Shown here: piece by piece, positions 31,669 through 41,799 of the stretch
Layout of the letters: every line of letters begins with the position of its first letter
How positions within the stretch are numbered: position 1 is the stretch's first letter
Translations under genes and position numbers: made by a program
DNA from: Acidobacteriota bacterium
GTDB lineage: Bacteria > Acidobacteriota > UBA6911
NCBI GenBank assembly: GCA_963664705.1
Contig: OY761556.1
Location: 6,830,880-6,894,879 of the forward strand
Length of the DNA stretch: 64,000 bases
Direction of reading: 5' to 3'
The notes under the pieces: model-generated
The model's database searches: none
Seen by the model: only the letters and a program-made list of their open reading frames with translations
What the model was told of the DNA's origin: nothing

Positions 31669-31986
31669 CGCCACTGGGAGCGAAAGATATTTCCGCTCCT
31701 CCCCATGACCTAAAGTTGAACATTGGAGAGGGGTTCACCGTTTCTATCGCCCCGCCAGGGCTCTTTCCCGCGCTTATCTCTACCGGGGGTTCGCTTCGCT
31801 TCACCCCCGGCTACTTTCTGACCGCCCCTTCGGGGCTGATTTGATGGAGATTCCAAGTTCCTCGGGCAAATAGTATGCGGCATCAGCCGGGACGGCGGTG
31901 CTCCCAGCGCTCTCGTCAAGCCACAGGTTTTTCCACTCGGCTTTGCTGGTGGAGAAGCTCACTCCCGGCTGTTTTCTGGCGCGCCT
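31669..31986. repeat. REP-like cluster, left part (continues at 33752)
   Basis: Same GGGGGTTCGCTTCGCTTCACCCCCGGCTAC units; the last unit is cut at GCGCCT. Confidence 0.85.
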
Positions 31987-32149
31987 ATGATTGTGCAACA
32001 TGGCCTGTTCAGGTAAAAAGGAAAAGAAAAACTTGGAGTTTGGGTGTGGAAACCCGGAAGGAGCCCGGAGGGCGACCGAAGGGTTTCTACTCCCAAACTC
32101 CAAGCGCGGATGCACTCGGATAGCACAGTCCTACATATTGAAGGCGCCC

Positions 32150-32968
32150 ATGATCAATAACACCAACCTTTCTCACTGGAACAGACTCCAAGCGAAGAGC
32201 CTTGACGCTCAATTTGTTAATGAGATGATTACCGGCCTTAACTGCTCTCCTTTCGAGGCGGAAGCTATTGTAGAGAAAGTTCATGAGGTTTACGTGCCGC
32301 TGTTTCAGACGGCGCAGGGACTTAAGCCGGGTCAGATTCAAGTGGCCGTGATCGATGCTTCGGTAGCGCCTAATGTGCCACTGGCAAAAGCCAAGCAGAG
32401 ACTGGTAACCCTGACCCTTCATGCAGGTACCGAAGATATCGAGACTCGAAAAAGGGGATCCGTACCAGCTCTTCGTCAGAAACGATTGTGCCGCATGTGC
32501 CAAGAAGCATTTCAGCAAGGGGGATTGTTGACCTTGGAGGATTTGGCCAATCTGTTCAATTGCGGCGTCCGCACTCTGGTGAACGACCTGGCGGCCTTGC
32601 GCAAACAGAGCATTGTGCCTCCTCTGCGCTCTACGACCAAGGATATGGGCCGCGCCATCACCCATCGCCAACTGATTATCACGCTCTGGATGCAAGGGCT
32701 TGAGTACTCCGAAATCGCCCGTAAGACCAATCACACCATCGACTCCGTAGCCAACTACGTGGATAAGTTTAAACGCTGTGCAGCCCTGTTTGTTTCTGGA
32801 TTTGACGTGGATACAGTTGCTCTGATGGTAAAGCTTTCAACGCCTCTGACCAAGGAATTTCAGCGTATCCACTCCGCTTGCCACGGGACTCCTCACCGTC
32901 TTCGGGAATTGGAAGATTTCCTCAAAAAAAACCGCATACCAAGCCTGCGCGGGAGGAAACGGTCATGA
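32150..32968 (+). CDS. DUF1670-like protein A
   Basis: LKPGQI, VTLTL, EAFQQGGLLTLEDLA, DMGRAITHR, HTIDSVANY motifs. Confidence 0.85.
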   Translation: MINNTNLSHWNRLQAKSLDAQFVNEMITGLNCSPFEAEAIVEKVHEVYVPLFQTAQGLKPGQIQVAVIDASVAPNVPLAKAKQRLVTLTLHAGTEDIETRKRGSVPALRQKRLCRMCQEAFQQGGLLTLEDLANLFNCGVRTLVNDLAALRKQSIVPPLRSTTKDMGRAITHRQLIITLWMQGLEYSEIARKTNHTIDSVANYVDKFKRCAALFVSGFDVDTVALMVKLSTPLTKEFQRIHSACHGTPHRLRELEDFLKKNRIPSLRGRKRS

Positions 32969-33750
32969 TTGCCCAATCTGAGGCTCAAAAACAATTCGGC
33001 TCTGCGCGGAAGCGCTTCCTGCAGTCTTCTATTGAAAATTTTCTGGACCAGGAGTTCCCTCGCACCTTCGGACCAGTAATTCGCGAGAAAATGGCAGAAA
33101 AGATTGTGGCGCTTGTCGACCAACAACTACCTCCCAAGGATCATCTGCGCCCTGGACAGTGTGTTTGGAATGCCGTATCCATTGCGACCCGGCCTGACAG
33201 CCCCAACTGTCGTCTTGTCCCCATAGTCTTGACGCTTGTGGATTCTTCGGATGCCGAGCAACTGGCTCGCGGAACACCCATGTCCAGAATCGCCCAAACG
33301 TCCATCGCTCGGATTTGCCGTGAAGCCTTTGAACAAGGAGCCTTGCTCTCGATGCGCGATATTGGCCTCTTAGTCTGGCGAGATAACGCCCACATCTCGC
33401 AGGTCCGGAAAAAGTGGGAGGCTGAACAGCAAACATCGTTGCCTCATGTCGGAACTATTCAAGATTTCGGCTCATGCATCACTCATAAGTCGGTCATTGT
33501 GCGCAAGGTTGTTTATGAAGGGAAAGATCCCCGTCGTGCTGCAGATGAAACCAAGCACTCGCAGAGAGCCGTCGATCGTTACCTAAAAGACTTTCATCGA
33601 GTAAGAACGTGCTTCGAACATATCCAAGATGTTGAATTCGTTATCAAAACAACAGGTCTATCCAGGCAGCTGGTAAACCAATATGTCAGAATCATCATGG
33701 AAAATGAGAAAACGTTTCCTAAAGAGAACTTGACAGGCAAGATTGCTTAA
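32965..33750 (+). CDS. DUF1670-like protein B
   Basis: LRPGQC, IVLTL, EAFEQGALLSMRDI, DFGSCITHK, HSQRAVDRY; ATGA overlap with A and GGAGG RBS. Confidence 0.85.
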   Translation: MIAQSEAQKQFGSARKRFLQSSIENFLDQEFPRTFGPVIREKMAEKIVALVDQQLPPKDHLRPGQCVWNAVSIATRPDSPNCRLVPIVLTLVDSSDAEQLARGTPMSRIAQTSIARICREAFEQGALLSMRDIGLLVWRDNAHISQVRKKWEAEQQTSLPHVGTIQDFGSCITHKSVIVRKVVYEGKDPRRAADETKHSQRAVDRYLKDFHRVRTCFEHIQDVEFVIKTTGLSRQLVNQYVRIIMENEKTFPKENLTGKIA

Positions 33751-33751
33751 A

Positions 33752-33930
33752 CTCCGGCGCTTAGTGCAGATGGAACAAAGATCCAGCGCCGGAGGCGCGA
33801 AAGATAGTAGCCCCGGGCGAGCTTGCGAGCCCGGGGTTAAATTAGGGGTTCAAAGAGCCCTGCAAGGGCGAAAGAACGGCCATGGCAAAAAGGTAAATGG
33901 CCTTGGGAGCGACGACGGCGCCCCCAGTGG
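33752..33930. repeat. REP-like cluster, right part
   Basis: Colinear with the uninterrupted cluster at about 43100-43240. Confidence 0.8.
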
Positions 33931-39879: not shown

Positions 39880-40112
39880 CGCCGCCGTCCCGGCTAATGC
39901 TGCATGATAATTGTTCTGAGCTCTGCGATGCCAGCGAGGCAACAGGCCCGGAGGGCCGAAAGCGAGTAGCCAGGGGTGAAGCGCAGCGAACCCCTGGGAA
40001 GATAAGTGCGAAAAAGAGCCCTGAAAGGGCGAAAGATCGGAATTCTGCCGCCCCTTCAGGGCTTGTTACTGATTTAATCCAATCCAGGGGTTCGCTACTC
40101 TCACCCCTGGCT
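39880..40112. repeat. REP-like cluster, left part (continues at 41653-41800)
   Basis: GTAGCCAGGGGTGAAGCGCAGCGAACCCCTGG and GCCCTGAAAGGGC units; last unit cut at CCCCTGGCT. Confidence 0.85.
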
Positions 40113-40458: not shown

Positions 40459-41553
40459 TCATGCAACACGACCGATAGCCCAGATAAATCCTGCCAATTC
40501 TCGACTTACCGCAACCGCGATCTTTTGTCTTTCTTTCCCTCGGTTGAGCATGCGTCGGAATTTTTGATTCAATCGCTTATCGCAACGTTGTGCAATCTCG
40601 ATAACTTCTGCCGGCAAACACTCTCGTCGTTTCTTGAGAGTTTTGCCAGCTACTGAAGAATGACGGTAGTGCCAGGCGCTTTCGATCAGCACCCTACGTA
40701 GGTGGCTGTTTCCCGTTTTGGTTATCCTTCCCCGTCTTTCAAGTTCACCTGAGCTGCTTTCCGAAGGCACCACCCCAATAGCGGCCATAAACGAAGGCGC
40801 ATCAACGAACCGTCTTAAATCGAGCGCTTCTGCGATAATCGTCATCGCCGTCAGAACCTGAACACCTTTTAGCGCCATCAAATAGCTGACTCGCTTTTGA
40901 TAGTTCGGCTGTTTTGCAACTTCCTCGATTTTTTCCTGGAATTTTTTCAACCGCTCCGTCTGTTGCTCAAGCGCCTGTCGATATTCCTCCAGTACTGTTT
41001 GATCCCCATCATCCTCAAACACAAGGCTCTTAATCCATTTTAGGTGCCCAAGCGACCAGTTCTTGCCCTGCGGATATTTCAATCCACGTCGCATCAGAAA
41101 CCGTGCTAATCGATGCCGTGCTCGCTGCTGGTCTTCCAATGCGTCTTCTCGCGCGCGCACTAGATCTCGCAGACTTTCCTGTTCTTTTTGCGGGATCACA
41201 ATACATGTTAGTTCTCCCGCTCGGTACAATTTGCCCAGGGCTTTCGCATCCAGCTTATCCGTTTTTACTTTTTTCCCCGCTCGTCTCGGGGTCAACGAAG
41301 GGGCCGCAACCTCACAAGAAATCCCATGTTTGGCCAAATAGCGCTGCAAATAGTATCCATTAACGCCCGCTTCGTAGACGCACCGTACATCATCTTCAAA
41401 TGCCCTTAGCTTTTTCGCTAATCGCCCCAGCCCCGTACTGTCGTTTGATACAACAAGTTCTTCTCGTGGGTTACTTTCCTGCCCGCGAAAAACTGCGACG
41501 TTTATCTTTTTTGCTGAATCATCCATCCCTACCCAAGTGATACAATCTGCCAT
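40459..41553 (-). CDS. IS110 family DEDD recombinase/transposase
   Basis: VGMD, YEAG, KTDKLDA (DEDD) and GVVPSESSSG...GRITKTGN (catalytic Ser domain). Confidence 0.96.
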   Translation of the reverse strand: MADCITWVGMDDSAKKINVAVFRGQESNPREELVVSNDSTGLGRLAKKLRAFEDDVRCVYEAGVNGYYLQRYLAKHGISCEVAAPSLTPRRAGKKVKTDKLDAKALGKLYRAGELTCIVIPQKEQESLRDLVRAREDALEDQQRARHRLARFLMRRGLKYPQGKNWSLGHLKWIKSLVFEDDGDQTVLEEYRQALEQQTERLKKFQEKIEEVAKQPNYQKRVSYLMALKGVQVLTAMTIIAEALDLRRFVDAPSFMAAIGVVPSESSSGELERRGRITKTGNSHLRRVLIESAWHYRHSSVAGKTLKKRRECLPAEVIEIAQRCDKRLNQKFRRMLNRGKERQKIAVAVSRELAGFIWAIGRVA

Positions 41554-41799
41554 GATCGGTCTCCTCATGTTTTATGGCTCTGCAGCTTTGTCACCACGAC
41601 TTCAGCTGTAACCCACGATATTACATGCTAGAGACCGATCACTCCATTATGTCTACTTGCTTTCGGCCCTCCGGGCCTGTTGCTCCACTCGCGTCGCAAG
41701 GCTCAGAACAATTCATTGGCGGCATTAACCGTCCCGGTGGGCACCCGCGACGTTGAGGCGGCTGCGCCTTGACGGCGAGACGCCGGCGGTCACGGTGCT

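Follow-up and report, generated by a model that had tools for sequence, protein, structure and literature searches.

A hairpin module inside the ends of DUF1670, IS3, IS21 and IS481 elements, and a target-complementary ribosome-binding segment in a DUF1670 leader, as found by sequence comparison

Bridge RNAs are defined by covariation with their target, and the sections of PMC11208160 dealing with IS621 give this IS110 element a structured non-coding left end after a circularisation promoter, a CT core and a REP target. The IS1111 seekRNA elements ISPa11 and ISKpn4, as presented in the relevant part of PMC11187229, combine sub-terminal inverted repeats and folded or REP targets with a segment complementary to the top strand. 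These features recur, the circularisation promoter in silico, in the two-gene DUF1670 element analysed here, whose 163-nt leader folds into a long hairpin. The tip of this hairpin may also be compared with sites of a different kind, namely the ssi sites of the GNA type. GNA hairpins are placed at priming sites, and located at the phage G4 origin, RSF1010 ssiA and the N4 promoter, in the pertinent portion of PMC13037366, according to which such mini-hairpins are far more stable in DNA than in RNA; our tip has the same strand-specific triloop, C-GNA-G, carried by a short GC stem. Likewise, ColE1, whose ssiA (n'-pas) is described in PMC3167613, has a GA-capped core of this kind between the origin region and rop. 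The module reported below differs from the ssi sites in that two purine internal loops and a variable stem of 9-24 bp support its core, inside IS ends, and a role in priming is here our own suggestion.

The element lies in a 64,000-nt stretch of an Acidobacteriota genome, hereafter the window. Its ends, insertion site and genes are as follows.

31987..33751, + strand: DUF1670 two-gene element of 1,765 bp, present in three genomic copies that are internally identical
31981..31986, + strand: left arm of the target hairpin and CT core (core at 31985-31986), the same in all three copies
33752..33760, + strand: CT core (33752-33753), two loop bases that vary among the copies, and GGCGC, the right-hand arm of the target hairpin
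31986..31991, + strand: -10 box TATGAT of a predicted circle-junction promoter, with a 17-nt spacer after in-silico joining
33730..33735, + strand: TTGACA, -35 box of the same predicted promoter, from the sequence
31995..32012, + strand: left sub-terminal inverted repeat, read from the sequence and conserved in 18 leaders
33729..33746, - strand: right sub-terminal inverted repeat, read from the sequence
33785..33836, - strand: right-flank Acido-Lenti-1 repeat (REP-like host repeat), which exceeds the gathering score at 44.8 bits
32150..32968, + strand: gene A (DUF1670, 272 aa), for which no folds other than helix-turn-helix were found
32965..33750, + strand: gene B, DUF1670, 261 aa, a paralogue of A with 27% identity

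Each of the three copies has CT on both sides, inside REP hairpins, and the rejoined flanks read GCGCC-TYY-GGCGC, with TCC, TTC and TCT as top-strand loops. All three copies used the GCGCC type of REP and none the GGCCC type, the genome holding 36 and 48 such hairpins, respectively. The Acido-Lenti-1 host repeat (RF01687) is present in both flanks and carries GNA hairpins of the targeted kind; when Rfam covariance models were run on the element and 20 related loci, hits were obtained only in such flanking repeats, and the leader was unmatched. In-silico joining of the element ends generated a predicted TTGACA-17 nt-TATGAT promoter, in agreement with the junction promoter that a preliminary description of this DNA had placed directly upstream of the leader, and no circle junction was found in the contigs searched; one run of raw reads contained none from this stretch. 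In addition, an IS110 transposase gene (40459-41568, minus strand) adjoins a GGCCC-type REP hairpin at 41666.

Domain searches at E <= 0.1 matched genes A and B to DUF1670 and helix-turn-helix (HTH) domains only. DEDD_Tnp_IS110 and Transposase_20 were absent from both at this threshold, whereas the control IS110 gene at 40459-41568 matched the two, and no RNA-binding recombinase domain was found by domain search. Structure models of A and B likewise consisted of HTH folds only; an H..H..Y spacing resembling that of tyrosine recombinases is present, and fold searches returned HTH-type matches only (best Z 6.8 and 6.1). The stop codon of gene B, at 33750, is one base short of the element end. 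Unlike IS110 elements with a bridge RNA, the DUF1670 element has no DEDD recombinase domain, and where those have two guide loops it has a single hairpin; unlike in the IS1111 seekRNA elements, its non-coding region is located upstream and not downstream of the genes, and its proteins are others.

DUF1670 relatives at E <= 1e-30 occurred in 1 of 401 genomes of the phylum, and no match was found among PLSDB plasmids. In total, 32 loci from genomes and 29 loci from metagenomes were collected; no literature on DUF1670 or PF07900 was found. One clade (L050, L053-L055 and L058) has a TT core replacing CT, and AA in the ribosome-binding segment where CT-core elements have AG. The Bacteroidales elements (L007-L028) carry other tip variants and no purine-rich ribosome-binding segment, and their ends appear to form what we take to be a Bacteroidetes-type junction promoter (TAnnTTTG box). 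Two viral matches to the left-end pattern were put down to chance.

The leader is dominated by the following structure.

32032..32104, + strand: long hairpin, its outer stem variable in sequence with pairing kept (13 of 14 stem pairs changed on both sides among 18 aligned leaders)
32056..32080, + strand: 25-nt tip (GGA, 2 bp, GA, GCCC-GNA-GGGC, GA, 2 bp, GGA-type triplet), common to IS3, IS21 and IS481 elements

The arms CTTGGAGTTTGGG (32032-32044) and CCCAAACTCCAAG (32092-32104), the arms GTGGAAACCC (32046-32055) and GGGTTTCTAC (32081-32090), and the 11-mer GCCCGGAGGGC of the tip (32063-32073) are all present as originally described. The RNA fold of the 163-nt leader has a free energy of -66 kcal/mol (z -4.38), which none of 200 shuffles equalled, and the 77-nt hairpin likewise outdid all 200 shuffles when folded as DNA, on either strand (z -7.14), in an energy model that ignores sheared pairs. 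The 11-mer is found at five places in the window (32063, 39946, 41666, 43209 and 49428; 0.06 expected), including the REP mini-hairpins at 39946 and 43209 to which the tip had been said to be identical, and at 64 in the genome (6.4 expected). It is over-represented because it constitutes the inside of the common 5-bp REP hairpin GGCCC-GGA-GGGCC.

Some departures from this arrangement were observed. L001 (2867-3003) and L056 have lost the tip; what is left of their loop lies in inverted orientation between the arms of the stem, and their right flank is not a hairpin arm. In L052 the leader is interrupted inside the tip by another sequence. In one reading frame (31991-32149 of the window; also L101, L103 and L149) the tip encodes EGARRAT(G), which is part of the N-terminus of IS3 OrfA. 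This open frame lets an ORF finder lengthen gene A to 325 aa, an extension that is likely an over-call since leader lengths in relatives vary out of frame.

Its location after the junction promoter, the CT core and a 7-nt match to one target could suggest that the tip is a bridge-RNA-like guide loop base-pairing with the target. To this proposal we give next to no chance. The target test set comprised 19 sites with both flanks, 17 of which are hairpins (at least 4 of 5 pairs) in tip-bearing elements, and tip loop and target loop agreed at only 3 of the 17. GTA tips go together with the target loops AAA, CAA, GGA, GTA, GAA, ATA, GCA and CTA and with the target arms GCCCC, GCGCC, GTCCC, GCCCT and GCTCT, and L039, with the same target as the element of the window, carries a GTA tip. 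That is, the loop stays constant across elements with different targets. Complementarity between tip and flank showed no excess over permutations (3,339/20,000; 13 clusters), and the covariation of loop with target by which the preliminary description had wished to recognise a guide is thus absent. Moreover, the bases matching the target lie paired within the stem. The same tip also serves elements with unrelated targets: in eight IS3 copies with a GGA tip the flanks are unrelated, 3-base duplications being present in several, and the flanks of four IS21 copies with the module likewise differ. As for the likenesses that had led to the proposal, CCGGAGG does match the bottom strand of the insertion site in one of the three copies but not in the others (bottom-strand loops GGA, GAA and AGA), and its 2,025 genomic occurrences compare with 1,852 expected; similarly, the 11-mer does occur in a REP, yet one of the GGCCC type, all three insertions being in the GCGCC-TYY-GGCGC type. 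On these sequence comparisons the guide reading of the tip is rejected. In contrast to the IS110 bridge RNA, the DUF1670 tip does not covary with its target, and the module is common to unrelated IS families.

It might also be imagined that the A and B proteins of the element dock at the tip, or are lured away by it as by a decoy, by virtue of its likeness to the target hairpin. Both are GNA-loop hairpins, and the tip is nearly invariant in the family, with 5 of 6 tip pairs never varying in the 18 leaders. We nevertheless consider either role quite improbable, since elements of the IS3, IS21 and IS481 families, which lack DUF1670 and insert elsewhere, retain the tip, and Bacteroidales DUF1670 elements have other tips.

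The caveat that similar tips may occur in unrelated IS turned out to be well founded. Searches with the tip pattern gave matches in 22 of 351 genomes of another phylum and in 17 of 301 genomes of the own phylum, compared to 1 match each for the reversed pattern, and most of them were not DUF1670. Pfam, NCBIfam and plasmid annotation at the matches pointed to IS3, IS21 and IS481, IS21 and IS3 being those named on annotated plasmids with the module. Tip variant 1 was found in 66 distinct contexts, of which 58 have a stem (at least 7 of 10 pairs), 5 do not and 3 are cut by contig ends; the stemmed contexts were labelled, by tblastn or a shared end, as DUF1670 (20), IS3 (17), IS21 (13), IS481 (2) and other integrase-core elements (2), with 4 unassigned. 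Variant 2, in which the inner arms are flipped, was found in 41 contexts (26 stemmed, 11 stemless and 4 cut by contig ends). As many as 25 of the 26 stemmed contexts are at IS ends, and none of the 11 stemless ones was assigned to an IS, with labels carried over from the variant 1 tally and two relabelled by shared end. Protein references for labelling were IS3, IS21, IS481, IS110 and DUF1670 only. A covariance model (R2) built from 44 modules found at least 49 places in 4 of 5 genomes, with 150 candidates scored per genome; 16 hit regions covering the types were fetched, and 14 matched IS3, IS21 or IS481 proteins while 2 share ends with those.

In the 44 modules, 95.5% of cells are paired, 12 of 12 outer pairs are compensatory, and the C-G pair closing the loop is kept in 43, even with the inner arms flipped. 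The register is fixed in 64 of 66 contexts. Wherever an element end was identified the module points inward, and it lies about 70-150 nt inside where measured. It is on the sense strand at left ends and antisense to istB, IS3 orfB and IS481 at right ends, so that it is often absent from transposase mRNA. By sequence comparison, the module is an established IS-end hairpin of at least four unrelated element families, as demonstrated by its position, orientation, fixed tip, covarying stem and independence from the target. It was not found elsewhere in its own genome outside the DUF1670 element, being absent at 7 IS3-like, 1 IstB and 11 IS110 places there, including the IS110 of the window, nor was it present in 5 IS630 regions (the cut-and-paste control) or detected when E. 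coli genomes were searched with a single 51-nt query. The absences in E. coli and at the IS places of its own genome indicate that circle-forming elements move without the module, which is optional. No description of the module was found in the literature, subscription papers, ISfinder and bioRxiv supplements (e.g. the cluster tables of 10.64898/2026.10.21.760802) falling outside the search, and neither IS3 nor IS21 is named in the accessible portion of a 2026 preprint on non-coding clusters.

Several individual loci deserve mention. In L141/L153, two module-bearing IS481 ends stand back to back, about 240 bp apart. An IS3-family element (L249, L250 and L262-L267) has the ends CCCCCTGTG.../...CACGGCCCG in place of TG/CA at the termini, and most of its copies are flanked by short duplications. 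Between genes of viral contigs (L173, L177, L192, L209 and L226), the 17-nt variant 2 core was also seen without an outer stem, and in L209 it precedes ORFs that by eye resemble packaging genes.

The middle base of the loop in variant 1 is T (37), G (20), A (5) or C (4), which corresponds to a GNA pattern, and the internal loops of the tip are GA/GA and, on both sides, pyrimidine-GGA-purine. In DNA, GA/GA and GGA/GGA form sheared zippers. Judged by sequence, the C-GNA-G triloop and the GA/GA and GGA/GGA loops are features of single-stranded DNA mini-hairpins, and sequence features and predicted fold together describe a strand-specific DNA hairpin with a GNA mini-hairpin. The DNA hairpin of the preliminary description thus stands as regards these features and finds no support as a device for target recognition. 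G-T exceeds A-C in the stems (24:15, and 25:1 in variant 2), implying that one strand folds, an excess that fits RNA and DNA alike. ColE1 has exactly one GA-capped GNA hairpin, at position 1334, which we take to be the place of ssiA; nothing in the F-G region of phiX174 fits this descriptor, and model R2 has no hit in ColE1 or phiX174. With 168 GA-capped GNA hairpins in the own genome, the core alone is unspecific.

Our tentative reading, which may well prove wrong, is that the module of DUF1670, IS3, IS21 and IS481 elements is a strand-specific single-stranded DNA signal, likely for the host machinery in circle formation and not for target choice. IS3 and IS21 are listed among the circle-forming, presumably copy-out families (10.1101/2023.06.07.543989), IS481 not being in the portion of the list available, and the conversion of figure-eight to circle takes place by replication according to the corresponding section of PMC7780238. 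DUF1670, IS3 and IS21 elements would accordingly move through a circle, which for DUF1670 is suggested by the predicted junction promoter. Copy-out would displace one strand, and the strand with the purine-rich tip may fold into an SSB-resistant mini-hairpin that could aid priming or protection of the displaced strand, like the GNA hairpins reported at primase sites in phage G4 and in RSF1010; on this model, the donor end should be the one far from the module. Counting against a DNA signal, the hairpin lies within the first codons of orfA in IS3 elements, where an effect on the mRNA is plausible.

The main rival to the DNA-signal reading is that the module acts as RNA, in which case transcripts entering from either end would fold, pause, be cleaved or be poorly translated, and the element would be insulated. 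The inward orientation, the stable RNA fold of the leader, the G-U pairs tolerated in the stems and the presence of the module inside orfA codons of IS3 elements all fit this, and the long perfect stem is a possible substrate of RNase III. However, RNA from right ends would be antisense and without evident use, no U tract follows the stem (CGCGGATGC does), so that the hairpin does not qualify as an intrinsic terminator, and the three-base GNA loop with C-G closure is a DNA feature in the relevant portion of PMC13037366. An RNA insulator is possible, although we think it unlikely. More remote still is the idea that several elements picked up REP-like DNA and have carried the module along as a functionless relic, given the register fixed nearly throughout, the compensatory stem changes, the narrow range of distances from the ends with a single orientation, and the persistence of the module within coding sequence. 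The core does resemble host REP hairpins, and the module can be lost (L001/L056), but we regard a relic as very improbable.

A second feature of interest lies at the 3' end of the leader.

31989..31998, + strand: 5' side of helix P1, with pairing in 89% of cells and 1 compensatory pair
32121..32130, + strand: 3' side of helix P1, which repeats the left end in inverted form, from leader comparison
32140..32147, + strand: GAAGGCGC, ribosome-binding segment complementary to the left arm and core of the target, covarying with the target

The 5' strand of P1 overlaps the -10 box and is therefore mostly missing from the junction-promoter transcript. P1 as proof of RNA was ruled out, G-T (10) and A-C (10) showing no strand bias. 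Across 13 leader clusters, the six-base complementarity of the ribosome-binding segment to the flank covaries with the target (47/20,000 permutations). That is, the arm GCGCC is accompanied by GAAGGCGC in this window and GTCCC by AGGGAC, and the TT-core clade has GAAAGGGC. Opening of the ribosome-binding region costs a mean of 12.7 kcal/mol in read-through transcripts vs 4.65 in junction transcripts, in a set leaving out the tipless L001/L056 and elements with less than 20 nt of flank; the cost is higher in 16 of 16 pairs, and for read-through it is above that of shuffled flanks (9.8) in 12 of 16. For one window copy, the costs differ little (6.0 vs 5.5). Pairing of the segment with target-derived bases thus likely silences read-through transcripts: in transcripts entering from the host, the ribosome-binding site would be sequestered by pairing with these bases and gene A thereby silenced, whereas transcripts from the circle promoter would lack the target-derived strand. 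The translational regulator of the preliminary description accordingly finds support in a part of the leader that it had not named, segment 32140-32147 and the preceding helix. IS10 and IS50 are protected from outside transcription in that read-through transcripts fold and hide the translation signals. The same would hold here, with the difference that part of the hiding strand is the conserved target site and not the element. Unlike in IS1111 seekRNA, the complementary segment overlaps the ribosome-binding site, and no bottom-strand match was seen by eye.

This 8-nt segment could itself be a guide, pairing across the core with the top strand of the target, whose bottom strand would meanwhile fold into its GNA hairpin. 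Besides the covariation of the six bases, two further bases of the segment match the target loop (113/20,000; 9 clusters), and this is not explained by read-through pairing because those loop bases lie past the far end of the inserted element. The two-base test was post hoc and small, with kinship only partly controlled, and its signal weakens to 565 and 999/20,000 once 1 and 3 left-out sites are added, so that the match hints only weakly at pairing with an empty target site. Furthermore, the near-identical leaders L039 and L042 have different arms, L003-type elements match at 4 of 6 bases, and A and B have no recognisable RNA-binding recombinase domain. Finally, none of 20 Bacteroidales leaders reaches 5 of 6 matches within its final 19 nt, despite hairpin targets, and the segment is hence not family-wide. 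Guiding by the segment is on balance improbable.

The bridge-RNA lead at the tip is thereby removed, leaving the eight bases at 32140-32147 as the only target-tracking part of the leader. A bolder possibility, rather unlikely in our view, would unite a portable single-stranded DNA priming signal in IS3, IS21, IS481 and DUF1670 elements, by which the displaced strand would be copied into the active circle, with eight ribosome-binding bases that, in this DUF1670 clade, would be guide and translation switch in one. For the conversion of the displaced copy-out strand into a double-stranded circle, the pertinent section of PMC7780238 offers no more than 'host replication'. A 49-nt module in four unrelated families, at either end and even in coding sequence, would offer a concrete cis element for mutation in IS21 of cultured rhizobia.
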